Under the pieces are notes generated by a model. That model ran no database searches and was not told where the DNA came from. It was given only the letters and a program-made list of their open reading frames with translations. The translations under genes and the position numbers were made by a program. Below are positions 4,926-52,318 of a stretch of 52,597 bases of DNA, one piece after another (the first letter of the stretch is position 1; every line of letters begins with the position of its first letter). Origin of the DNA: an uncultured Pseudomonadales bacterium (GTDB taxonomy: Bacteria; Patescibacteriota; Microgenomatia; UBA1400; UBA12108); assembly GCA_964349305.1 (NCBI GenBank), contig CAYGFS010000003.1:1-52597 (forward strand). Direction: 5' to 3'.

Positions 4926-5687
4926 ATGGATATTCCCATCATCTTTGAAGACAGTGAAATAGTAGTGATTGATAAGCCCAGCGGGGTGGTGTGCAACAGG
5001 GCCGAGACGGTGGAGGTAGAGACGCTGCAAGATTGGTGGGATGGGAGATACAAAATCTCAAATCATAAATTCTCCAATGCTCAAATTGAGGATGAGAAGT
5101 ACTTTATAGAGCGCAGTGGTCTCGTACACAGACTGGATAGAGAGACCAGTGGGGTGATGGTGATGGCCAAGACAGTCACAGCGTTTGTCAGTTTGCTGCG
5201 CCAGTTCAAGGAGCGAGGGGTGCACAAGCAGTATATGGCACTAACTCACGGGTACTGGGACAGCCGGGAGGGCGATATCAATCTGCCAATTGGGAGGCGG
5301 AGAGATGATCGAAAAAAGTTTGGCGTGCGGGAGGATGGGCGCGAGAGCGTGACCCACTACGAAGTAATCAAAGAATATACTAGCTGGGAGTTCCCCAAGG
5401 AACTCAAAGTGGATGATAGGGGATATGTCGGATTTACTCTGGTCAAATTTTTGCCGAAAACCGGACGGACCCACCAGATTCGAGTGCACGCCAAACAGAT
5501 GGGTCACCCGATTGTTGGGGACTTTGATTATGCGGGGCGCAAGCGCAATAGGGAGGATCGTAAGTGGTGTAACCGGGTCATGCTGCAGGCTCAAAGAATC
5601 GAGTTTGAGCACCCCCGTAACGGAAAAAGAATTCATTTTGAATCGAAGGGTGAAGAGTTGAATGAAGTATTGAAGTATTTTAAATAA
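4926..5687 (+). CDS. RluA-family pseudouridine synthase
   Basis: Catalytic motif HRLDRETSGVMV, plus IIFEDSEIVVIDKPSG and HQIRVH. The ATG at 4926 is preferred over the GTG at 4908 because TATAAT at 4914..4919 lies 6 nt upstream. Confidence 0.9.
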   Translation: MDIPIIFEDSEIVVIDKPSGVVCNRAETVEVETLQDWWDGRYKISNHKFSNAQIEDEKYFIERSGLVHRLDRETSGVMVMAKTVTAFVSLLRQFKERGVHKQYMALTHGYWDSREGDINLPIGRRRDDRKKFGVREDGRESVTHYEVIKEYTSWEFPKELKVDDRGYVGFTLVKFLPKTGRTHQIRVHAKQMGHPIVGDFDYAGRKRNREDRKWCNRVMLQAQRIEFEHPRNGKRIHFESKGEELNEVLKYFK

Positions 5688-6822
5688 TGAGCATCGCGTC
5701 GCCAAAAGAGAAGAAGCGATAGTTTTCTTGGATTGCGATCGCGTAAGCTTTACCCAAAAGTGAATCGGCAAAATTGGTAAATGTTTCGGGTGAGTTGGGG
5801 TAGGTACAGAATGCTGAGACGAGCATGAGGAGGGTGGAGCCGGGGAGGTGAAAATTGGTCAGGAGCGCGTCAACTTGCTGAAACTGATAGGGAGGATAGA
5901 TAAATATGGAAGTGGAGTGGGAGCCGGGCTGCAGAAGTTCCGAACACTCGCCTATAGTCGTGCAAGGTTCGGAACTTTGTAAAGCGGCAGATTCCAAGGC
6001 GCGCATGGTGGTGGTGCCGATCGAGAGTAATTTTTGACCTGATTGCTTGAGGGTGCGAATATGAGCAGCAGTAGTATTGGAGATGGTGTAGGATTCGGCG
6101 TGCATGTGGTGATCCTCGATATTATTATCTTTGACGGGGAGAAAAGTACCCAGTCCGACGTTCAAGGTGAGCTCGTTCCAGCTATGATCTTGTTTGATCT
6201 GTTTGAGTAGTTCTGGCGTGAAGTGGAGACCGGCTGTGGGAGCGGCAGCAGAAAAGCCATATTTGGCGTAGATGGTCTGGTAATCGGCAGAGTTGCCCAG
6301 GAGCTTTTTGATGTAGGGAGGAGTGGGCATGGTTCCGAGCTGAGACAGGGTTGTGCGCAGCGCTGACTCTTCTTGGTTGAAGTGGATGGTACGTTCGATG
6401 TCTGAAACTGCGATGATTTTTCCTATGAGGACTGTCCTTTCGTCTGCCGACGAGCCCTTCTCGGCTTGCAGCCGGGAATTCCTTTTAAGGACAGTCCTCT
6501 CAAAAAAGATGACATCGCCGACCTTGAGTCCGGGACGAGCAATGCAGCGATAGCGAGAGTGGCCAAGGGGAACGGTCAGTAAGATCTCGACTTTGCCGCC
6601 GCTAGGCTTATGACCCAAGAGCCGAGCAGGAAAAACTTTGGTGTTGTTGGCGACCACAAAATAATCACGAGGTAGGAGAGCGGGCAGATCGTAGATATGA
6701 TGATGGGTAATACTCCCAGTCTGGCGATTGATCAGCATGAGCCGAGCTGAGTCGCGGGGTACGGCGGCTTCTTGGGCGATGGCGTCCCCTGGCAAGCGGT
6801 AACTGAATTGTGAAAGAAGCAT
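5680..6822 (-). CDS. queA: S-adenosylmethionine:tRNA ribosyltransferase-isomerase
   Basis: 380 aa. Shows YxLP..IAQ, GTTTMRALESAA and TNFHLPGSTLLMLVSAF, all characteristic of QueA. Confidence 0.95.
   Translation of the reverse strand: MLLSQFSYRLPGDAIAQEAAVPRDSARLMLINRQTGSITHHHIYDLPALLPRDYFVVANNTKVFPARLLGHKPSGGKVEILLTVPLGHSRYRCIARPGLKVGDVIFFERTVLKRNSRLQAEKGSSADERTVLIGKIIAVSDIERTIHFNQEESALRTTLSQLGTMPTPPYIKKLLGNSADYQTIYAKYGFSAAAPTAGLHFTPELLKQIKQDHSWNELTLNVGLGTFLPVKDNNIEDHHMHAESYTISNTTAAHIRTLKQSGQKLLSIGTTTMRALESAALQSSEPCTTIGECSELLQPGSHSTSIFIYPPYQFQQVDALLTNFHLPGSTLLMLVSAFCTYPNSPETFTNFADSLLGKAYAIAIQENYRFFSFGDAMLII
5929..5982. repeat. inverted pair of the same REP-like element inside queA
   Basis: The right copy at 5961..5982 (TGCAAGGTTCGGAACTTTGTAA) has a 20-nt core identical to the RAYT-locus copies. 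The left copy at 5929..5950 (CTGCAGAAGTTCCGAACACTCG) is inverted and diverged. Confidence 0.85.
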
Positions 6823-17756: not shown

Positions 17757-17764
17757 ACCGTTAT

Positions 17765-17790
17765 GTTACTATGTTTCGAAACATAGTAAC
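17765..17790. promoter_or_regulatory. perfect 26-bp palindrome, candidate operator
   Basis: GTTACTATGTTTC|GAAACATAGTAAC with no loop and no U-tract. It lies 9 nt upstream of the start at 17756. Confidence 0.4.
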
Positions 17791-17821
17791 AAGAAAAGTC
17801 TAGTCGGCTCGAACTATTGAA

Positions 17822-18685: not shown

Positions 18686-21451
18686 TCAGACTTCCTCTTC
18701 CTCGGCATCCTGTAGGGTAGTAACACTAGTGACGACGTCGCCGGCGGCGGGGCGCATAAGGATGACTCCCTGAGTGGAGCGGCCAAGAACCTTGATGTTT
18801 TTGAGCGGGAGTTTGATGACCTGGGCTTGTTTGGTGGTGATCACGACCTGTTCATCGTCCTCCGTCACCATGCGAACAGCGGCAATATCACCGGTGCGCT
18901 CAGACAGCTCAGCGACTTTGACCCCCTGCCCGCCTCGCTTTTGGTCAGGGTATTCGCCGACGTCGGTGCGCTTGCCCAGACCTTTTTCGGTGACTACCAA
19001 AATTTCGCGGAAGAATTTGCGGCGCTTGTCGTCGGGTTTAGGAGGGGTGATCTCGACTGTTTCCATCGCAATCACGGCATCATCCCCTTTGAGGGTCATA
19101 CCTTTGACACCCATGGTGTCGCGGCCGGTGGCGGTCACGTCAGTTTCTTTAAATTTGATCGATTTGCCGCCCTTGGTGACCAGGATCAAGTAGTTTTGGC
19201 CGTGGCTAATCTCGACTTTGATCAGCTGATCGTTATCGCGCAAAGCGATGCCGATCTTGCCGCTATTGCGGATGTTGGCGTATTCGGTGAGCGGGGTCTT
19301 TTTGATCATGCCATTGCGGGTGGCCATGGTAATAAAGTGACCCTTGTCATTGAGGAGATCTTTGGACAAGGTTAGGACTGCTTGGACCATTTCACCCTGC
19401 TGGATATCGAGGAGATTGATAATGGCTTGGCCTTTGGCGGTCCGACTGCCCTCGGGGAGCTCGAAAACGCGCATGCTATACACCTTGCCGGTATTGGTAA
19501 AGAAGAGCGCAAAATCGTGAGTATTGCCAACGGTCATGTGAAGGATCTCGTCGGTGTCTTTGGTGGTCATCCCCACTACCCCTTTGCCACCGCGGCGCTG
19601 GGTACGATAGGTTGAGAGCGGCATGCGCTTGACGTAACCGTCGCGAGTGATGGCTACCAAGTTGTCTTCGGCTGCCACCAGATCTTCTTCGCTAAACTCG
19701 CCGAGTTTACCTTTGATGACTTTGGTTTTGCGGGGATCGCCGTAGATGGCTTTAAGCTCGGCCAACTCTTTGACGATGGTAGACAGAATTGCCTTGGGAT
19801 CTTTGAGTAGTGCCAACAGTTCGTTGATGCGCACCATGAGGGCGTTGTATTCATCTTCGATCTTTTGGCGCTCGAGGGCACTGAGCCGGCGCAGCTGCAT
19901 ATCGAGGATGGCCACCGCTTGGATCTCACTAAAGCCAAACTTTTTGATTAAACTGGCTTTGGCGTCTTCGGTGTCTTTACTGGCACGGATCGTTTTAATG
20001 ACTTCGTCGAGGTGATCGAGGGCTATTTTTAATCCCTCCAAGATGTGGATGCGGGCGCGATTTTCTTTGAGTTCAAACTGGGAGCGGCGGACTATCACGG
20101 TTTGGCGGTGTTTGACGTAATGACTGAGGATGGTTTTGAGATTCATTAGGTGGGGGGTACCGACCTCATCAAGCGCCACCATGTTGGCGGGGAAACTATT
20201 CTGGAGCTCGGTGTGCTTGTAGAGATTGTTTAAGACGGATTTGGGTTTACTGGCTTTTTTGAGTTCGATCACGATGCGCATGCCTTCGCGGTCGGATTCG
20301 TCGCGGAGGTCAGAGATACCGTCGATTTTTTTGTCGCGAACCAGGTCGGCAATTTTTTGGATCAATTTGGCTTTGTTGACTTGATAAGGGATCTCGGTCA
20401 CCACTATTTGGAATTTCCCCGACTTGGTCTCTTCGATCTCGGCCACGGCGCGGGTGACTACTCTCCCCTTGCCCGTAGCATAAACTTCGCGGATAGCGAC
20501 GGCGTCGTAGATCACGCCCCCCGTGGGGAAATCGGGTCCCTGGACGTGCTCGAGGAGATCGTCTACAGTGGCTGCTGAGGTGAATTCTCCGGTTAGTTCT
20601 CCATATGGCCTAATCTCAATATCTTTGTCATCCGTGATTTCTTTGGCGCGAGGCGAGGTACCCATAGAGATGAGTTTGGTGGTGGCGTCGATGATTTCGC
20701 CAATATTGTGGGTGGGGATCTTGGTGGCCATACCGACTGCAATTCCGTCTGATCCCATGAGGAGGAGGTTGGGGAGACGGGCGGGCATGACGGTGGGCTC
20801 CTGGAAAGTGCCGTCAAAGTTGTCGATCCAGTCGACTGTGTCTTTGTCTAGATCAGCGAGGATTTCTCCCGTGATCTTGGCTAGTCTAGCCTCGGTGTAA
20901 CGCATGGCGGCAGGAGAATCTCCGTCAACCGAACCAAAGTTGCCTTGGCCGTCTACGAGCATGTAGCGCATGGAGAAATCTTGGGCGAGACGAGCTAGGG
21001 CGTCGTAGACTGCAGTGTCACCGTGGGGGTGGTACTTACCCAGTACTTCTCCCACAATGCGGGCGCATTTTTTGTATTTGGCTGGAGGTAAAAGAGCGAG
21101 CTCTTTCATGCCAAAAAGAATGCGGCGGTGAACAGGCTTTAAACCGTCGCGGGCATCGGGGAGCGCACGGGAGACGATGACGGACATGGCGTAGTCGAGG
21201 TAGGACTTTTTCATTTCATCGACCACTCCGACGGTCGCGATCTTGCCAAACTTGGTTTCTTCGATATCCCAGGGCTTTTGGGCACCCACAGTGAGGAAGG
21301 AGGTGCGGTCGGCAACAGGCTGCAAAGGTTCCGTTTGAGATTCAAGTTCGGAACTATCCTTCACTTCGTTGCGGACCGCTGGAAGTTCCGAACTTTCCAC
21401 CTTCGTTTCTTCATCAAGGTCCAATGGTTTCAAAATGCTCTCGTCAGCCAT
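18686..21451 (-). CDS. gyrA: DNA gyrase subunit A (with about 70-aa N-terminal extension)
   Basis: [28 protein letters not shown], the active-site segment [10 protein letters not shown], and C-terminal beta-pinwheel repeats. Confidence 0.97.
21321..21396. repeat. three degenerate REP-core copies inside the gyrA 5' extension
   Basis: TGCAAAGGTTCCG at 21321..21333, CAAGTTCGGAACT at 21343..21355, and GAAGTTCCGAACTTT at 21382..21396. Confidence 0.6.
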
Positions 21452-24652: not shown

Positions 24653-24675
24653 TTACAAGGTTCGGAACTTTGTAA
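24653..24675. repeat. REP-like palindrome copy A (immediately 3' of the RAYT stop)
   Basis: TTACAAGGTTCGGAACTTTGTAA. 11-bp stem with one G-T mismatch. Confidence 0.9.
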
Positions 24676-25353
24676 TTACTGATCTTCGTTGACGTCGAGT
24701 GTTATTTTTTCAATATTGCCAACGTCCCCTCCATCTTCGACAAAACCTTTATATTCCTGAGGCGGATTTTTGCGGTACCTTCCTAGTAAAGTAGCCTTAT
24801 CGATCCAAGGAGTATCAATATCGTTAATATAGTTGTAATAAGACGAGTATTTATACTCAGATAATTTACAAGGTTCGGAACTTTGTAAATGCAGCGGATT
24901 TCTGTGAATATACTTCGAGAGGTAGAACCATTGATATTCGTTAGTTACGAGTACGTTTTTGTATTTTCCTTGGAAAATAGTGCCTGAGTGATGGTGTCTA
25001 TCGTTGAAATACATGGAGTATCCAATGCTCACTCTTCTCATGAGATCCGAAATGGTTAAGGTGTTGTTCTCTTGTTTAATCATGAAATGAAAATGATTTG
25101 GCATGAGGCAGTATGCCAGGAGAGAACAGCTGCGAGGTTCGACTGCAAGGTTCGGAACTTTGTAATCCTTGGGTTTTCGACTGAGAGTGCTTTGAGCGAT
25201 CCCCCGGGGATGGAGCAAATAGTAGCTTAGAATTTCTGTAAAAACTTGATAGTCTTCGGCATCCAGGAAGAGCTTTTGCTGGTGAGCCCCCCTGTTGTAG
25301 ATGTGATAATAACAACCTGGTACAAATATGCGCTGGTAATAAATACTGGGCAT
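24676..25353 (-). CDS. REP-associated tyrosine transposase (RAYT; IS200-like Y1/HUH family)
   Basis: YHIYNRG, HUH motif in AYCLMPNHFHFMI, QGKYK, and the SKYIHRNP tyrosine motif. 225 aa with no tnpB partner. Confidence 0.85.
   Translation of the reverse strand: MPSIYYQRIFVPGCYYHIYNRGAHQQKLFLDAEDYQVFTEILSYYLLHPRGIAQSTLSRKPKDYKVPNLAVEPRSCSLLAYCLMPNHFHFMIKQENNTLTISDLMRRVSIGYSMYFNDRHHHSGTIFQGKYKNVLVTNEYQWFYLSKYIHRNPLHLQSSEPCKLSEYKYSSYYNYINDIDTPWIDKATLLGRYRKNPPQEYKGFVEDGGDVGNIEKITLDVNEDQ
24866..24888. repeat. REP-like palindrome copy B (inside RAYT CDS, translated ..LQSSEPC..)
   Basis: Identical 23-mer TTACAAGGTTCGGAACTTTGTAA. Confidence 0.9.
25144..25165. repeat. REP-like palindrome copy C (inside RAYT CDS, translated ..YKVPNLA..)
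   Basis: TGCAAGGTTCGGAACTTTGTAA. The 20-nt core is identical. It is preceded by a partial duplication, GAGGTTCGAC. Confidence 0.9.
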
Positions 25354-25363
25354 GGATTCATTA

Positions 25364-25386
25364 TTACAAGGTTCGGAACTTTGTAA
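25364..25386. repeat. REP-like palindrome copy D (10 nt 5' of the RAYT start, in the RAYT/pilB divergent region)
   Basis: Identical 23-mer. Confidence 0.9.
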
Positions 25387-30941: not shown

Positions 30942-31419
30942 CCGAAGTTTCAAAGTGAAGTGAAGGGTTGCGCGTGGAAGTCTCTGATCCATTGTCCTGC
31001 AAATCGAAGGAGACTTTGACTAGAGTGGGTTCGGTATCAGAAGGAGAACAAGTGAGCACAAAACCGTTGACGGTAGTAGTGGCGGGAGTCAGATAGGTGC
31101 CGGAGTTGGAAGCGATACGGGTGATGCCGCTGACGCTGTCGATTTCGCTGAGCAGACGGGTTGATCCCCCGTCGGAGCCCACGATTTCGATAGCGTAACC
31201 GCTAGAGTCGCACTCGGTGACAGTTTTGGCGTTGCGGATCATGCTTTGGATTTGACCGAGCGCATAATTGCCCGCTTGCTTTACTTTGGTAGTTGTCCTG
31301 ATCCTCGTACTGGTGATCACACTCGTGAGCATGATGCTGGAGATAGCCAAGGTCAGTAAACTGAGCAGGCCAATTACGACAATGAGTTCGATAAGCGAAA
31401 AGCCCGAGTTTTTTACCAT
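30922..31419 (-). CDS. pilin-like protein (minor pilin)
   Basis: MVKNSG|FSLIELIVVIGLLS prepilin motif. The start moves to the ATG at 31419 (track: 31470). Confidence 0.75.
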   Translation of the reverse strand: MVKNSGFSLIELIVVIGLLSLLTLAISSIMLTSVITSTRIRTTTKVKQAGNYALGQIQSMIRNAKTVTECDSSGYAIEIVGSDGGSTRLLSEIDSVSGITRIASNSGTYLTPATTTVNGFVLTCSPSDTEPTLVKVSFDLQDNGSETSTRNPSLHFETSVNLRNE

Positions 31420-31892
31420 TGAGTGAGCTCCACTTCGAGAGAGGCATGACGCTCTTCTTTTTCTATCCAATCAACGACGATGGTGGCTTTTAATATGCCG
31501 CTGACTATGCCAGACGGATCAATAAATATTTCACGCTGGAAAATGGTACCTGGAATGAAATCGGTATCGTCGCAGGTAGTAGCTGCGAGGGTGGTAAAGT
31601 CGGTTGCGGTCAGGGTACTGGGAAGACTATTTAAACAATAAATGCTATCACCACTGATATTATCTTCTTCGACTTTGGCAGCCATTGTGGCCCAGCCAAG
31701 CTCGCTCCGCTGTGTCCGCAGCCAGTCAGCAACCTCTGTCGTGTACTTGGAGGCTTCGGCGAGGTCGCGGGCGTAGGTATTTTGTTTTTGTGAGTGATTG
31801 GAGAGGGAAAGCGCTGCAATGACCGACATACTGATCAGGGCGGCGGCAATGACGATTTCGATTATAGAGGTGCCACGATAGGTTTTGATCAT
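31413..31892 (-). CDS. pilin-like protein (minor pilin)
   Basis: MIKTYRG|TSIIEIVIAAALI, with G-1 and E+5. Confidence 0.7.
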   Translation of the reverse strand: MIKTYRGTSIIEIVIAAALISMSVIAALSLSNHSQKQNTYARDLAEASKYTTEVADWLRTQRSELGWATMAAKVEEDNISGDSIYCLNSLPSTLTATDFTTLAATTCDDTDFIPGTIFQREIFIDPSGIVSGILKATIVVDWIEKEERHASLEVELTQW

Positions 31893-31897
31893 AGAGA

Positions 31898-32380
31898 TTA
31901 TTGCATCCCCTGGTATTCGATAGTCCCTGAACTGGTGAGCTCAATTTGGTATGTCGTCCCATTCCCGGCAACAATATTGAGTAAATAGGGATTGGTGGGT
32001 AAAGTGATGCCCAGCGAGAGCGGATTAAAAGTGAGCGTGGCGGAGGATAATCCGGCAATGCCGGAAAAAGTGGTAGTAGTGGCAACGCCAGGGTCGTTTT
32101 CACACATGCTTTGTTGTTTGAAACTGTTAGGCGGGATAATTGTGACTTCTTGGCCTAGGAATTTGTTGGTGCAGTCGATTTTGCCGATGCTGGCAATTGT
32201 TTGATTTTCTTGGAGCAAGGAGAGCACCTCTTCAACCGCTGCCTGACCGGCTTGGCGGTCGCGAGCCTTGCCATAGGCGGAGACACCAAAACTAACAAGA
32301 ATCCCGACGATGGCCACAAGGATCATGAGTTCGACAAGAGTATAGCCGTGCTTCATAGGCTTTTTATGGCTCGGATACAC
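31898..32380 (-). CDS. pilin-like protein (minor pilin)
   Basis: ..MKHG|YTLVELMILVAIVGIL. The true start may be the ATG at 32356. Confidence 0.75.
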   Translation of the reverse strand: MYPSHKKPMKHGYTLVELMILVAIVGILVSFGVSAYGKARDRQAGQAAVEEVLSLLQENQTIASIGKIDCTNKFLGQEVTIIPPNSFKQQSMCENDPGVATTTTFSGIAGLSSATLTFNPLSLGITLPTNPYLLNIVAGNGTTYQIELTSSGTIEYQGMQ

Positions 32381-32762
32381 AGTACGACGGATCTACGGTG
32401 GTCTCGAGCTCAGCACATAGCTGGTAGGTGGTTGTGCCAGAGGGGGTGTAGGTATAGGTAAAATCAGGCGTTTTGGGGTCTTCTGGAACGGAGGTAATGT
32501 ATGCTGGTACTAAGGCGGATAGACCGGGTGAAAGATCGGGGTACTGCCGATTCTCGGACCTATATGTTTCGAGGGCTTGACGGATCTGCTCGAGATCGGT
32601 TTTGCGCTTGGAATCGCGCGACAGCCGAATAGCGCGCAGGTAACTGACAGAGCCCACAGTAATCAAAATGCCGATAATGGCGATGACGACGAGGAGCTCG
32701 ATGAGAGTGAAACCTCGCTTGAACTTAGATGTTAGATGATAGATTCTAGATGTTAGTTTCAT
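32364..32762 (-). CDS. pilin-like protein (GspG-like pseudopilin type)
   Basis: The track ORF 32364..33056 overlaps the next pilin gene. The ATG at 32762 gives MKLTSRIYHLTSKFKRG|FTLIELLVVIAIIGIL. Confidence 0.75.
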   Translation of the reverse strand: MKLTSRIYHLTSKFKRGFTLIELLVVIAIIGILITVGSVSYLRAIRLSRDSKRKTDLEQIRQALETYRSENRQYPDLSPGLSALVPAYITSVPEDPKTPDFTYTYTPSGTTTYQLCAELETTVDPSYCVSEP

Positions 32763-32766
32763 AGTG

Positions 32767-33177
32767 TTACTGTTGATTTTGGGCGCAATAATACGTACCA
32801 TCAGGTGCCCAGTCGCAAGAGGTGTTGAGCGGAACATTGGCATTGCCTGCGCTATTTTCCAGTGTAGCACAAACGCAATAAGTATCGGCGAGCACCATCC
32901 AGGTGAGCGGAGAATTGTCTTCGCGTGGATCTGTGGGGGCGACCCCGTTTTCAAAGGCTGAGCCGTAGCTACCCACGGGATATGCCCCAGTTTCGGCATA
33001 GTATTGCTCAAAAGCCGACTGGACATTGCTGATGATCTCCCTGCGGGCGGCGTCACGGGCCTGCTTTTGAGCAGTGATCAGATTGGCAACGCCGATACTA
33101 GTAATGATGGCGATAATGGCGATGACCACCAGGAGTTCGATAAGCGTAAATCCAAGCTTTAATTTTATTGTGCGCAT
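32767..33177 (-). CDS. pilin-like protein
   Basis: MRTIKLKLG|FTLIELLVVIAIIAI, followed by the QARDAARR segment typical of GspG-like pilins. Confidence 0.8.
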   Translation of the reverse strand: MRTIKLKLGFTLIELLVVIAIIAIITSIGVANLITAQKQARDAARREIISNVQSAFEQYYAETGAYPVGSYGSAFENGVAPTDPREDNSPLTWMVLADTYCVCATLENSAGNANVPLNTSCDWAPDGTYYCAQNQQ

Positions 33178-33683
33178 ATGACAAAGTCCTTTGTTTCATC
33201 AACTTTGTTACTGTCATACAGCGAAGCACAACGATCATGGGAATCCGTGATGTCAGAGTCGGAGAGGTTTTCAAGCTGGGCGATCAGGATAAATTGGTCG
33301 TCACTGGGAGAGACGTATTTGTAGGTGAGAGCAGTGAGATCGCTCGAGGATGGATCCATGGGGAGTGCTCCCATGTAGGTGGAGGTGTCGGTGGCAAAGG
33401 GGCTACCCCAATTGCACTCAGCCGGTATGGCAACAGTCCCACAGCCGACGATGGCGAAAGCTGGTCCGGTACCGGAGGCAGGAAATTGCTTGGCGTCGTT
33501 GTAATAGAGCCTGACGGATTGTTCGATGGCACGCAGATCAGATTTGCGACGAGTGTCCCTGGCACGAGAGCGGGCTCCCTGAAGATTGGTGGTAACGAGC
33601 GCAGTGAGAACTCCGATGATCGTAATCACGATTAAGAGTTCGATGAGGGTGAATCCTCGCCGGATCGTTGCAGTAAGTTTCAT
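33165..33683 (-). CDS. pilin-like protein
   Basis: MKLTATIRRG|FTLIELLIVITIIGVL, then ARDTRRKSDL. Confidence 0.8.
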   Translation of the reverse strand: MKLTATIRRGFTLIELLIVITIIGVLTALVTTNLQGARSRARDTRRKSDLRAIEQSVRLYYNDAKQFPASGTGPAFAIVGCGTVAIPAECNWGSPFATDTSTYMGALPMDPSSSDLTALTYKYVSPSDDQFILIAQLENLSDSDITDSHDRCASLYDSNKVDETKDFVICAQ

Positions 33684-34159
33684 TGGACGTTGCTCGAAGT
33701 GATTTGATAATTACATAAGACATTGGCTGCGCAGTAGGTATCGGTGATACTGGTATCGATTGAGTTGTCACCCGAGTTTTCGAGGCGCGCATAAAGCCGA
33801 TAATCGGTCCCATTGATAGAAGAATACCAGTAAGTAAAACCAGAGGAGTCAGCTGGGAGAGTAGCGGCATAGATGGTTCCATTGTCGTCCGTAAATGCTT
33901 CACCCCAAGGACATTCTGGAGGGTTGGTGGTTTTGCAGATAATTTCCCCGTCACTATTTGAGAGGGGGTATGAGCGGTGATCGTTGACATAGGCTTCGAG
34001 ACTCTTGGCAACGGTTTGGAGGTCGGATTTGCGGGAGAGATCGCGGGCTTTGATGCGCGACGATTGAAAATTGGCCAATCCGAGGGTGGAGAGGATGGAT
34101 AGAATAGCGATTACAACTAAGAGTTCGACGAGGGTGAATCCGCCTTTGATTGTTTGCAT
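33680..34159 (-). CDS. pilin-like protein (first gene of minus-strand pilin operon)
   Basis: MQTIKGG|FTLVELLVVIAILSIL, then ARDLSRKSDL. Confidence 0.8.
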   Translation of the reverse strand: MQTIKGGFTLVELLVVIAILSILSTLGLANFQSSRIKARDLSRKSDLQTVAKSLEAYVNDHRSYPLSNSDGEIICKTTNPPECPWGEAFTDDNGTIYAATLPADSSGFTYWYSSINGTDYRLYARLENSGDNSIDTSITDTYCAANVLCNYQITSSNVQ

Positions 34160-38956: not shown

Positions 38957-39106
38957 TTATTGATTACAGTTGGTGCAGACTGTGTGGGACTTTTTCATCT
39001 GGCCACAGTTGGTACATTTGACCAGCTTGGGGAGAGCCAATTTGATACTGGCGCGTCTCTTACCTTGTCTAGCGGTGGACCATTTGCGTTTTGGTAGCGG
39101 TGTCAT
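38957..39106 (-). CDS. rpmF: 50S ribosomal protein L32
   Basis: Not in the ORF track (49 aa). Reads MTPLPKRKWSTARQGKRRASIKLALPKLVKCTNCGQMKKSHTVCTNCNQ, with two CxxC pairs. Its ATGA overlaps the recG stop. Confidence 0.85.
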   Translation of the reverse strand: MTPLPKRKWSTARQGKRRASIKLALPKLVKCTNCGQMKKSHTVCTNCNQ

Positions 39107-41043
39107 ACAGGGTGTATTCTAACAGCTTCGAAGCTGGCCCGCAATAACTCTGTATCATAGATGGAGGCGAAGCGCAGAGAGAAGAAGCCGTGCTGCGATT
39201 GTCCAAATAGCTCACCCGGTCCGCGATTGTCCAGATCATAGAGGGCCAATTTTTCTCCGTTTATTTCGTTTTTGAAGTAGGTGAGACGTTCTATAATTTT
39301 TGAAGAGTTTGATGAGGAGAACAAGAGACAATAACCCTGAGTCGATCCTCTCCCTACCCTACCCCGCAGCTGGTGGAGCTGTGCCAATCCAAACCGCTGT
39401 GCATCTTCGATAATCATGATGTTGGCTGCGGGTATATCAATCCCGACCTCCACCATGGAGGTGGCCACCAGGATTTGGGTGAGACCATCGCGAAATGCTT
39501 GGAGGTGCTGGGTTTTTTCAGTTTCTAACATGCGCCCGTGCATAATGTCGATAATCAGACTGGGAAAACGGGTTTTGAGATCTGACTCGAGCAGTTTGAG
39601 GGATTTTTGTGCGTTACCTTCATTATCTTCGGCTTCTTCGATCAGGGGGACAACCACAAAAACCTGATTGTGATTGGATACTACTTCGGACTTGATCCAG
39701 TCATAGGCCCTATCTCGCTTTTCTTCTCCCACTAAGTAAGTTTTAATCGGGAGTCGGTTTTTGGGTAACTCGTCCAGTCGTGAGATATCCATACTGGAGA
39801 AGATCGTCATGGCGAGGGTACGAGGGATAGGAGTGGCGGTCATCATGAGGACGTGGGGGGCAGGAGTGAGGGAGCTCAAGTATTCTCTTTGTTTGACACC
39901 AAATTTGTGCTGTTCGTCGACGACGACGAGACCAACGCTACCAAATTTTAATTTAGTAGAGAGTAGAGCCTGAGTACCCACTACGAGGTTGGCGGCCGTG
40001 TCGCCTTTGACACCAGCGGTCACAAGGGAGACTGTCAGCTGGCCACCGAGCAAGCTTTGGAAGGAAGCGTGGAGTTGCTCGGCTAAGATTTGGGTCGGTG
40101 CCATGACGAGGGTTTGGTGGTCAGAGAGATAAGTGGCGAGCGCAGCAGCAGCAGCAACTAAGGTCTTGCCGGACCCCACCTCGCCTGCCAGGAGGCGGTG
40201 CATGGCGATGGGTTGACAGAGATCGCCCAAAATCTCCCCGATCACTCGAGTTTGAGCACCTGTGGGAGTATAGGGTAGATTGGTAAGCCAGTTTTGCAGT
40301 TTAGCAGTGTCCCAGTGGAGCGGGGTGGTTTTGACTTTACGTAGTTCGGAGCTCTCTAAGCTCTCGAGCTGGAGAGTATAGAGCTCGTCAAAAGCCAGGC
40401 GACGGATGGCGGCATCAAGATCCGGACCTTCAAAGCCAGGCCTTGAAGGGTTGTGGATGGTGCGGATGGCCGTGTCGAGGTCAATGAGTTGGTGGGTTTG
40501 GCGAATCTTTATATCTAGGGGATCGGGGATGGGAGGAGTGACAGCTAACGCGGCAGCGATAATTTTACGTAAAACTCCTGATTTGAGAGTGCCGAGGCTG
40601 GGATAAATGGGCATGAGTTCATCCTGACTTTCAAAATCCGGTGCAATTTTGGTCAGTGAGGGTGAGACGACTTGTCTGGTATTTCCAAAAATTGTGAGTT
40701 GGCCACGCACTAGATAGGTGTCGGTCGGTGAGACTGAACGGGTGATATAGGGCATGTTGAACCAGCGCAGCGTGAGCGATCCACCTCCCCTTTCGGGAGT
40801 CTCCCGAAAGGTGGAGACTTGAGAAGTGACGTGGGCCCCGTGTTTGCTGATGGGGCGGGCGAGTGTTCCGACCAGGCTAACCCACTCCCCTACCTGTGCC
40901 TCGCGGGCGGTGGTAGCATGATAGGTTCGGTACGTGCGGGGGAAGTAGGTGAGGAGGTCGTGCGGCGTGGCAATTCCGTGTTTTTCCAGCAAGCTGAGGG
41001 TTTTTTCACCTATACCAGATATTGAAGCTAGAGTATTTGACAT
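39103..41043 (-). CDS. recG: ATP-dependent DNA helicase RecG
   Basis: 646 aa. N-terminal wedge/OB region, helicase motif I GEVGSGKT, motif II DEQH, and QLHQLRGRVGRG. Confidence 0.93.
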   Translation of the reverse strand: MSNTLASISGIGEKTLSLLEKHGIATPHDLLTYFPRTYRTYHATTAREAQVGEWVSLVGTLARPISKHGAHVTSQVSTFRETPERGGGSLTLRWFNMPYITRSVSPTDTYLVRGQLTIFGNTRQVVSPSLTKIAPDFESQDELMPIYPSLGTLKSGVLRKIIAAALAVTPPIPDPLDIKIRQTHQLIDLDTAIRTIHNPSRPGFEGPDLDAAIRRLAFDELYTLQLESLESSELRKVKTTPLHWDTAKLQNWLTNLPYTPTGAQTRVIGEILGDLCQPIAMHRLLAGEVGSGKTLVAAAAALATYLSDHQTLVMAPTQILAEQLHASFQSLLGGQLTVSLVTAGVKGDTAANLVVGTQALLSTKLKFGSVGLVVVDEQHKFGVKQREYLSSLTPAPHVLMMTATPIPRTLAMTIFSSMDISRLDELPKNRLPIKTYLVGEEKRDRAYDWIKSEVVSNHNQVFVVVPLIEEAEDNEGNAQKSLKLLESDLKTRFPSLIIDIMHGRMLETEKTQHLQAFRDGLTQILVATSMVEVGIDIPAANIMIIEDAQRFGLAQLHQLRGRVGRGSTQGYCLLFSSSNSSKIIERLTYFKNEINGEKLALYDLDNRGPGELFGQSQHGFFSLRFASIYDTELLRASFEAVRIHPV

Positions 41044-50579: not shown

Positions 50580-52318
50580 AGGTAGACTATTTCACCTCCG
50601 TAAAGCTTGCGGATGTCCGTGATGCCGTATTTAGACATGACGAGGCGGTCGAGGCCAAGGCCGAATGAATAACCCGTGTAGATTTCCGGATCGATTCCGC
50701 ACGATTTATAGCAGTTGTAATGGGTCATGCCAGATCCCAGTGTTTCAATCCAACCACGATATTTACATACCTGGCAGCCTTTGCCGCCACAAAATCTACA
50801 TTGCATATCGACTCCCATGCCGGGACTCACCTCAGGATAATATTTGTAGCGGAAGCGGAGTTTGACGTCGGCGCCAAATAAAAACTGATGTAATCCCGTG
50901 AGCATGTCTTTAAGGTGGCCGATGGTAACTCCCTTGTCTACCACAAATCCCTGGTATTGGTAGAAGAAAGCGCTGTTGGTGGAGTTGGTAGTTTCATTTC
51001 GATAACATTTTCCAGGAACAACGACGCGGAGAGGTGGTTTGTAGTTGGAAAGCACCCGCGTTTGGATCGAGGAGGTGTGTGTACGAAGAAGTAAATTTGG
51101 TTCTTGGATAAACAGTGAGTCCTGTAGATCGGTGGCGGGGTGGCCCTCAGGGAGGTTGAGACGGCGGAAGTTATACTCGACGTCCTCAATCTCTGGTCCT
51201 TCGCCAATAGAAAAGCCTTGGTAGCGGAAAAATTCGTTCATTTCGCGGATAATGACGGTGGTGGGGTGGAGGCGGCCGATCGGGTGAGGGGTACCAGGGA
51301 CAGTTAGATCTAGACCACTGATTTGAGACGAGGCGGCAAGCTCGCTTTTTTTGTTGGCGATTTGCTCTTCTTGGGATTTTTTGAGTTCGTTGAGCAGTGG
51401 GCCGAACTTTTGTTTGTCCTGCAGGGCCAGGCCCTGCAGGCTCTTGAGTAGCTGGGTAGTACTCCCCTTTTTGCCAAGGTATTTGAGATATAGTGAGTCT
51501 AGATCAGTTTGATTTTTAATCGATTCGAGATCAGCTGTGAACTGCGGACCAATTTCAGATATTTTTTCTGGAATATTTACAGCACTACGATAATTCGAAT
51601 TATCGTAGTGTTTGGCCATTGGTTGCGTGGTCGTGTAGTGGACAAGTGTGGAATTGTTTGTGTGTTCGATGTTGGAAACGGTAATGGGCCAAATATCATC
51701 GCCGGTCTTGAGCTGGGTACCGCCGTCGGGGATATGATAATCCTGACCAATGCTCAAAACACGGAGTTTTTTGCTGGTGGGGAGCTTGGCGGGGAGCCAA
51801 TTGGACAGCTTTTTAAGTTCTTCGAGAGTCACAAATTGAGTTTTGATCTCGGGTTTAGCGGTGACAAGCTTGGTGAGCTCTGTGTTTAACTGGTCTAGAT
51901 CTAAATTTTGTATTCCTTCGAATTCGATAAACAGCTTTTTGCCAATGCCGTGCATCCCGCGAATGGGAATAAGTTGTGGATAGATAGTCCGCGTGACCAG
52001 ATCTACCAGGTGGCCGGCAGTGTGCCACTGCATATGTTTGAGGCGAAGAGGCCAGTCGATGGTAAGCTCGACGCTTTGACCGACAGTGAAATCACCCTTC
52101 ATGGTGCCTAAGTGTTTGATTTGCCCACCGTTGTATTCGACAGACTTGACGCTTAACTCACCCGAGGCTGATTTAATTGTGCCCTTGTCTGACTGTTGGC
52201 CGCCACCCTGGGGGTAAAAGATGGTTTGGTCGAGGATTGCGTAGGTATTCCCTACTGCAATCACCTTAGCCGTAGCTTTGGATTGATACGAATTGGTTAA
52301 ATAAAGTGCTTCGGTCAT
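50576..52318 (-). CDS. pheS: phenylalanyl-tRNA synthetase alpha subunit fused to an N-terminal AlaX-like domain
   Basis: The C-terminal ~340 aa is a full PheS (LGKKGS.., HPTTVIIREM, class II core GFGLGLDRL). The N-terminal ~240 aa matches the AlaX-M pattern (LYLTNSY.., ILDQTIFYPQGGGQQSDKG, HTAGH). Confidence 0.9.
   Translation of the reverse strand: MTEALYLTNSYQSKATAKVIAVGNTYAILDQTIFYPQGGGQQSDKGTIKSASGELSVKSVEYNGGQIKHLGTMKGDFTVGQSVELTIDWPLRLKHMQWHTAGHLVDLVTRTIYPQLIPIRGMHGIGKKLFIEFEGIQNLDLDQLNTELTKLVTAKPEIKTQFVTLEELKKLSNWLPAKLPTSKKLRVLSIGQDYHIPDGGTQLKTGDDIWPITVSNIEHTNNSTLVHYTTTQPMAKHYDNSNYRSAVNIPEKISEIGPQFTADLESIKNQTDLDSLYLKYLGKKGSTTQLLKSLQGLALQDKQKFGPLLNELKKSQEEQIANKKSELAASSQISGLDLTVPGTPHPIGRLHPTTVIIREMNEFFRYQGFSIGEGPEIEDVEYNFRRLNLPEGHPATDLQDSLFIQEPNLLLRTHTSSIQTRVLSNYKPPLRVVVPGKCYRNETTNSTNSAFFYQYQGFVVDKGVTIGHLKDMLTGLHQFLFGADVKLRFRYKYYPEVSPGMGVDMQCRFCGGKGCQVCKYRGWIETLGSGMTHYNCYKSCGIDPEIYTGYSFGLGLDRLVMSKYGITDIRKLYGGEIVYL

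Follow-up and report, generated by a model that had tools for sequence, protein, structure and literature searches.

The 54-nucleotide (nt) segment at positions 5929-5982 of contig CAYGFS010000003.1 (assembly GCA_964349305.1; the 52,597 nucleotides analyzed are referred to as the window) lies inside queA, a tRNA-modification gene. With a probability of about 0.8, this segment is a doublet of the genome's own repetitive extragenic palindromic (REP) sequence, which is cognate to a Y1 (HUH) transposase encoded 19 kb away and resembling the REP-associated tyrosine transposases (RAYTs), and it is translated within a functional QueA. This reading builds on the sequence identity of the segment with copies at the transposase locus, its reading in frame, its absence from baseline orthologues, its location in a loop, and the linkage and co-variation of REP and RAYT. 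The features of the queA locus are given below; REPIN stands for a REP doublet forming a hairpin.

5680-6822, minus strand: queA open reading frame (ORF) of 380 aa, intact, hosting two in-frame palindromic elements
5929-5982, minus strand: REP pair, a REPIN-like doublet with the in-frame translation LQSSEPCTTIGECSELLQ, residues 281-298 of QueA
5960-5982, plus strand: full-length REP arm GTGCAAGGTTCGGAACTTTGTAA, identical to the REP consensus of the RAYT locus at 21 of 23 positions
5929-5950, minus strand: diverged inverted REP arm, which reads CTGCAGAAGTTCCGAACACTCG and keeps the core AGTTCCGAAC and a few flanking bases

The 20-mer CAAGGTTCGGAACTTTGTAA at 5963-5982 is identical to all four REP copies at the RAYT locus. 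An exact repeat of this kind had been claimed in the original prediction, which was made from the letters of the window, and coordinates, letters and a shuffle test all agree with it. When up to three mismatches were allowed, the 20-mer matched five times in the window and not once in 100 dinucleotide-preserving shuffles. The 9-nt core GTTC[C/G]GAAC occurs eight times in the window, compared with 0.45 expected occurrences, and all of them lie in REP contexts, namely the queA pair, a pair in gyrA and the four RAYT-locus copies. The inverted copy at 5929-5950 is present with the letters originally reported, but the spacer between the arms measures 12 nt and not 10. As predicted, the pair encodes its peptide on the minus strand between RALESAA and IFIYPPYQF of an intact ORF. 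Either strand of the pair folds into a single hairpin, with an energy of -13.4 kcal/mol (z = -4.1) for single-stranded DNA (ssDNA) of the coding strand. The full-length arm in queA has the same plus-strand orientation as the copies at the RAYT locus, all of which are co-oriented. All five full-length REP copies of the window thus point in one direction, and its GC skew is strongly positive throughout (0.05-0.27 in every 4-kb bin).

A palindrome could also have been born in situ by template switching or hairpin-templated mutation, match the RAYT locus by coincidence, or be an artefact of assembly. Loops tolerate arbitrary sequence and template switching can make palindromes, as is generally known. 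Yet an exact match over 20 nt had no counterpart in any shuffle, and from genome to genome the REP variant changes together with the RAYT locus (see below). The same architecture also recurs in assemblies made independently from further samples (L001, L004/L005, L013/L014). This group of explanations is effectively refuted. An intein or intron was rejected because the segment is too short, contains no splicing motifs and is palindromic, and a protein-level repeat motif was rejected because the same DNA occurs in two frames and in non-coding DNA. The exact 20-mer was found once among 185,579 species-representative genomes (596 Gb), in an unrelated metagenome-assembled genome of the Chloroflexia, which is about the level of chance. 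Viral contigs contained no exact match to the REP or to the second, 72-nt element of queA described below, and thus gave no evidence for a phage vector.

The QueA protein of the window matches Pfam Queuosine_synth (PF02547) end to end (E = 2.7e-104), scores above the equivalog cut-offs of NCBIfam (NF001140, 365.8 versus 324; TIGR00113, 316.3 versus 267) and contains the expected residue at every invariant column of a 120-sequence alignment. Because the ORF is intact and the invariant residues are present, a disrupted queA pseudogene, which had been named as the alternative, is not supported. Judged from these sequence features, the REP pair is an in-frame insert and would form a translated part of an intact queA. 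The designation of this tRNA-modification gene as essential was overstated, since queA is not known to be essential in model bacteria. Compared with the 344-aa baseline orthologues, all 36 extra residues of the window protein belong to the two elements (15 + 21). The REP pair is indeed read as 18 residues, but the net gain over the baseline is 15 aa (26 versus 11).

In an alignment with the solved QueA structures 1VKY and 1YY3, the insert, which is spanned by the peptide stretch RALESAALQSSEPCTTIGECSELLQPGSH, falls into a gap of variable length that is bordered by LE(T)IA and (T)DLFIYPP. An AlphaFold model of QueA was built from 120 sequences (mean predicted local distance difference test score, pLDDT, 82.9; predicted template modeling score, pTM, 0.79), and its best matches in the PDB are the QueA structures 1YY3, 1VKY and 1WDI (E = 1e-24 to 1e-26). 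Residues 282-299 of the model form a coil with a pLDDT of about 63-69 between a confident helix (270-281) and a strand (300-303). An earlier model from 33 sequences was too poor (pLDDT 60.9) and was set aside. The proposed position in a surface loop is consistent with the solved structures and with the model, in which the insert appears as a permissive, low-confidence coil. The doublet is predicted to occupy a surface loop that tolerates changes in length, in a QueA that is functional.

The closest QueA homologues stem from Woesebacteria/Microgenomates of the Candidate Phyla Radiation (CPR) and are at most 76% identical to the window protein. In 59 of 120 such homologues the loop between RALE and STSIFIYPP consists of the 11-aa baseline SNPxLxPGxHS, compared with 26 aa in the window. 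A codon alignment showed that the relatives P0004 and P0016 cleanly lack the whole palindrome-encoded segment. P0002, which represents a sister lineage, and P0010 contain a homologous SSEPC...SEL segment together with a GTTCSGAAC palindrome pair in the DNA, and P0014 resembles a decayed remnant of the insert. The insert is therefore lineage-specific, as had been suspected: relatives without the palindrome also lack the peptide. As the peptide in P0002 and P0010 is always accompanied by the palindrome pair, no close relative was found to encode it without the palindrome.

Recognizable insert peptides occupy the same loop in 44 of the 120 homologues and fall into seven classes (SSEPC..SEL, SSDLRAV..KDRSEL, TGTLENRKTGIL, YNPRGYKSLISPGV, CHRVTAG, LQRTxPC and DSRIHG). 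Their distribution is very patchy and requires 41 Fitch changes on a neighbor-joining tree. The inserts are palindromic wherever the DNA was inspected; that in queA of L013 has perfectly inverted 11-nt arms. The P0091 insert LQGSVLC...LQRTDPC corresponds to the REP variant of other RAYT loci. This loop of QueA is a clade-wide insertion hot spot. Lineage-specific, palindrome-like inserts also occur at further positions of QueA in relatives, such as LKLQSYEPCNKLL or QRSDLCLKLL before KLLSIGTTT (L013 DNA CAAAGGTCGGACCTTTG), GDLPAGKAGHSW, TGPARNATHSVAGG and DLPAQAGSLLG.

The candidate enzyme and the REP copies around and within its gene are located as follows.

24676-25353, minus strand: RAYT-like Y1 (HUH) transposase gene, 225 aa, one copy in the window
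25364-25386, plus strand: REP copy upstream of the RAYT start (position -33); six genomes have a copy at this position
25143-25165, plus strand: REP copy in the RAYT ORF (+188, about residue 63), read in frame 2 as DYKVPNLAV
24866-24888, plus strand: REP copy in the RAYT ORF (+465, about residue 155), read in frame 1 as HLQSSEPCKL directly after the catalytic YIHRNP
24653-24675, plus strand: REP copy abutting the RAYT stop codon; the same arrangement is found in L007, L008 and L009

The transposase passes the Pfam model Y1_Tnp (32.4 bits; cut-off 23). It contains the HUH motif (NHFHF) and the tyrosine of YIHRNP, and the residues H87, H89 and Y148 do not vary among 26 homologues. JGI annotates some homologues as 'REP element-mobilizing transposase RayT'. 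A sequence search of the RAYT against solved structures gave nothing significant. A tblastn search revealed no second RAYT copy within the 52.6-kb window, and the gene order pilB-RAYT-holB-gyrB is conserved in several relatives. From the one copy and the conserved synteny, the RAYT is most simply read as a vertically inherited single-copy gene. As an imperfect palindrome of 23 nt, the REP reads TTACAAAGTTCCGAACCTTGTAA and has the layout TTACAAAG-TTCCGAA-CCTTGTAA. It is open in two of the three frames in either orientation and reads LQSSEPC/YKVPNLV or LQGSELC/YKVRNFV.

The four REP positions (-33, +188, +465 and the stop codon) are the same in the window and in five further genomes, L008/L007, L012, L015, L016 and L017 (RAYT loci at L008:9769-10505, L012:2480-3225, L015:8515-9260, L016:9970-10715 and L017:9970-10720), whose RAYT proteins are 50-77% identical to that of the window. 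The internal copies differ from each other in reading frame (KVPNL... and LQSSEPC...), and single copies may have the opposite orientation. From one genome to another the core varies, the variants being GTTCCGAAC, GTTACGAAC, GTTACGATC, GAACGGATC and GGACGGATC. All or nearly all copies within a genome represent one variant, the variants are essentially private to each genome for which DNA was compared, and every variant can still form a hairpin, whose outer stem TTACAAAG/CTTTGTAA is conserved. In 85 of 115 homologues, a single string of 15 nt or more could code for both segment 1 and segment 2 of the RAYT protein, compared with 27% of mismatched protein pairs. The test was set at 15 nt, as a 12-nt version was uninformative (73% of the mismatched pairs passed). 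A core that is uniform within genomes and different between them indicates concerted evolution of a DNA element rather than a protein constraint. In the species comprising L012 and L013, the RAYT REPs have GATC in place of GAAC and so does the queA insert, and the queA and gyrA copies of the window both use GTTCSGAAC. Because the REP co-varies with the RAYT locus, the link between queA and RAYT is stronger than could be known when it was first proposed. Four fixed RAYT REPs that evolve in concert would point to an active homogenizing process or to co-evolution of the enzyme and its embedded sites.

A second in-frame pair is located in gyrA.

21317-21415, minus strand: segment of 99 nt in the N-terminal extension of gyrA, second in-frame REP pair

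The two arms, with REP cores at 21344-21355 and 21384-21395, are perfect inverted copies of each other over 12 nt, and the folding energy of the segment is -13.0 kcal/mol (z = -3.8). The close relative L018/P0287 has 24 nt at this site versus 99 nt in the window, and the downstream part of gyrA is about 88% identical at the nucleotide level. A search for GyrA homologues was dominated by the conserved core and yielded four hits with an N-terminal extension of more than 25 residues before DEMK. In L018 the gyrA gene (L018:180-2906) is broken up into three successive ORFs, perhaps through frameshifts or mistakes in the assembly. In L016, a perfect copy of the genome's own REP variant lies in an intergenic region (L016:20395). 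L011 harbors a perfect back-to-back inverted REP pair with arms a few bases apart (L011:1029-1075, read SLQGSELCNSQSSEPCN) and a single copy at 2041, all in frame in a 699-aa ORF beside a type IV pilin-like gene. The copies in queA, gyrA, the RAYT gene and the L011 ORF are thus all intragenic, with an open frame running through them; by mechanical ORF calling, 92% of the window is covered. A weak REP-like match with 6 mismatches in 23 positions is present at 40337-40359 in recG (39103-41043, minus strand), where it encodes LESSELRKV; either decay of a former copy or chance could explain it.

The genic REPs might instead be exapted cis-acting sites or hairpins for the RAYT or a host factor, with a role in replication, supercoiling, transcription pausing or mRNA stability, and be kept by selection in queA, gyrA and the RAYT gene. 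The REP positions within the RAYT ORF are fixed clade-wide and evolve in concert, and hairpin potential is kept across the variants. Intragenic REPs are also enriched in replication and repair genes (PMC3733652), a pattern that gyrA and recG fit. The queA and gyrA copies, however, are patchy among close relatives, and one of the queA arms is decaying. Such a function is moreover compatible with a mobile origin and does not exclude it. Exaptation as the explanation of the genic copies is considered very unlikely.

The loop might also go back to one ancient insertion, or have been long from the start, and be maintained today because the peptide or loop is useful to QueA. Similarity to the RAYT locus would then result from protein or structural constraint, and the baseline loop from repeated deletion. 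The insert of the window has an equally placed and equally oriented counterpart in the sister lineage P0002, and P0010 has it as well, so the site is old rather than recent. Insert-bearing alleles of every class have N[AV][AST]L before the insert, while baseline alleles have NPxL, and this shared flank could reflect one ancient insertion followed by turnover or loss instead of repeated insertions. The identity of third codon positions in the insert to the P0002 and P0010 orthologues is only modestly raised (67-69% versus 46-48% in the rest of the gene). On the other hand, the REP is read in another frame (KVPNL) and is present in non-coding DNA at the RAYT locus, which indicates that the conserved unit is the DNA and not the peptide. 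At least seven unrelated peptide classes occur at the loop, and half of the clade functions with a loop of 11 aa. In addition, the window arm matches the REP of its own genome at 21 of 23 positions and the orthologous P0002 arm lacks the TTACAA outer stem, which points to homogenization or re-insertion. An ancient, functionally retained loop is regarded as unlikely.

The age of the site, the shared flank and the modest rise in third-position identity nevertheless count against a doublet supplied by the genome's own REP-RAYT pair, and so do several other observations. The upstream queA arm diverges strongly from the REP consensus, and the 52.6-kb window contains three REP sites outside the RAYT locus, of which the one in recG is weak. 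The flanks of the REP contain no GTAG/CGTC guide tetranucleotide, and the transposase reaches 47 bits with the NCBIfam model REP_Tyr_transpos (NF047646), under its cut-off of 80 bits. Because of the missing tag and the failed curated cut-off, the transposase and its REP, which by their sequence features probably work like a REP-RAYT system, are classified as a divergent rather than a canonical member. The part of the RAYT as mobilizing enzyme, the recency of the event and the neutrality of the peptide for QueA are inferred.

If the queA segment is a REP doublet, its origin could be as follows. By analogy with TnpA_REP and the IS200/IS605 family, the RAYT would recognize the REP hairpin on ssDNA and occasionally copy REP units elsewhere. 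Landing sites would mostly be genes, because about 92% of the genome is coding. The surviving insertions would be those that keep the frame, are free of stop codons and lie in permissive loops or termini. Later, a copy may be homogenized with the REP population of the genome, be re-inserted, or decay into an ordinary loop.

RAYTs are known as single-copy genes flanked by REPs (bioRxiv 10.1101/2021.07.10.451892; PMC6006769). The REP/REPIN-RAYT systems of Proteobacteria (TnpA_REP, 'REPtron') resemble the present one in a Y1/HUH gene, here probably single-copy and vertically inherited, that is flanked by cognate short imperfect palindromes, in REPs that are specific to the genome or RAYT, and in inverted doublets that fold into a long hairpin. 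A defining feature of REPs is a 5' guide tetranucleotide, GT[AG]G or else CGTC, at the hairpin foot (PMC6006769, PMC3733652). The system described here differs in its CPR host, the absence of a 5' GTAG/CGTC tetranucleotide, a score below the NCBIfam RAYT cut-off, and two REP copies at conserved positions in the RAYT ORF. Its doublet spans about 54 nt, whereas typical REPINs measure about 100 bp; the pairs in gyrA and L011 are likewise shorter than typical REPINs. The dispersed copies in the DNA compared are mostly intragenic and presumably translated, in contrast to REPINs, which are found 'almost exclusively' in extragenic space (bioRxiv 10.1101/2021.07.10.451892). The IS200/IS605 elements share the Y1 HUH transposase and same-strand sub-terminal hairpins at both gene ends, but here the gene occurs once in the window, extra hairpins lie in the ORF, and hairpins are dispersed without the gene. 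This single copy and the conserved synteny suggest that the RAYT gene is not transposing as a unit.

Rickettsia palindromic elements (RPEs) are likewise in-frame palindromes in genes that stay functional, and they typically occupy surface-exposed permissive sites in a reduced genome. RPE-1 elements are about 100-150 bp long and exceed the REP pair in length. The parallel drawn in the original prediction holds for in-frame palindromes in ORFs but is an analogy only, since the RPEs belong to another phylum and the sequence family found here is, by inspection, unrelated to CGTC-type repeats. RPE/CGTC repeats have no transposase dedicated to them (PMC3733652), whereas a cognate RAYT locus is evident here. 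The intragenic GTAG/CGTC REPs of Di Nocera et al. 2013 (PMC3733652) also consist of monomers or dimers wholly in ORFs and encode about 20-30 aa, and many of them reside in replication and repair genes, as do the copies in gyrA and possibly recG. They differ from the present REPs in the tag, which is lacking here, and in the host, whose phylum is outside that survey; distinctive here are also the loop of one protein as a clade-wide hot spot and the RAYT-internal REPs. In-frame palindromic repeats as such are already established by the RPEs and the intragenic GTAG/CGTC REPs (PMC3733652). The literature searched contained no paper on RAYTs or REPINs together with CPR taxa, nor any description of REPs within the ORF of a RAYT, although such absence is no proof.

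REPINs and RAYTs have been discussed as long-lived, vertically inherited extragenic replicators, and in-frame palindromes have been regarded as a rickettsial curiosity. The REP-RAYT pair described here appears to live largely in coding sequence, including its own transposase gene. The chances are about even that Woesebacteria and related CPR bacteria harbor a so far undescribed style of REP-RAYT system for genomes nearly free of intergenic space, in which a coding-compatible hairpin (open in two frames in both orientations) colonizes the surface loops and ends of housekeeping proteins, QueA being a hot spot across the clade, while the RAYT gene has four fixed cognate REPs, two of them in its ORF, that evolve in concert. 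The interest of the locus derives mostly from this clade-wide pattern and from the REPs embedded in the RAYT gene. The homogenization or co-evolution that such a pattern would imply could serve autoregulation, or the RAYT-internal REPs could act as master copies. The system would offer a natural case of selfish DNA shaping proteins, as QueA loops and the GyrA N-terminus gain 15-25 residues at once, and it opens the co-evolution of enzyme and site specificity to study, as the five REP core variants track RAYT lineages. For annotation, it shows why CPR proteins often have lineage-specific insertions; such inserts inflate apparent divergence and could pass for novel domains.

The second palindromic element of queA is unrelated to the REP.

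6427-6498, minus strand: 72-nt palindromic element in queA, read as RTVLKRNSRLQAEKGSSADERTVL, residues 109-132 of QueA

It is identical at 72/72, 71/72 and 65/72 nt to same-site copies in three other queA genes, which are otherwise 60-69% identical to queA of the window (third positions, 36-48%). The element folds at -21.8 kcal/mol (z = -6.1), occurs in one copy per locus and is absent from baseline queA. The search against Rfam gave nothing at threshold; the element scored 21 bits with RAGATH-21, for which the gathering score is 70, and no mention of RAGATH-21 was found in the literature searched. Other lineages contain GSDLEGRAQPPDSKAGRSDP or SLLDRRPGEQPSRDAEGGRRLP at this site.

Two perfect 28-nt palindromes unrelated to the REP, TGTTACTATGTTTCGAAACATAGTAACA at 17764-17791 and CACTACGATAATTCGAATTATCGTAGTG at 51583-51610, may be operators or other sites; the former lies in one of the few ORF-free stretches of the window. 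The region 31373-34153 contains four to six direct repeats of 32-82 nt that are 61-81% identical, are spaced about 370-940 nt apart and probably mark the conserved ends of tandem paralogous genes. Among the relatives, DnaB contains an intein bearing a LAGLIDADG domain according to Pfam (L013:14296-17067).

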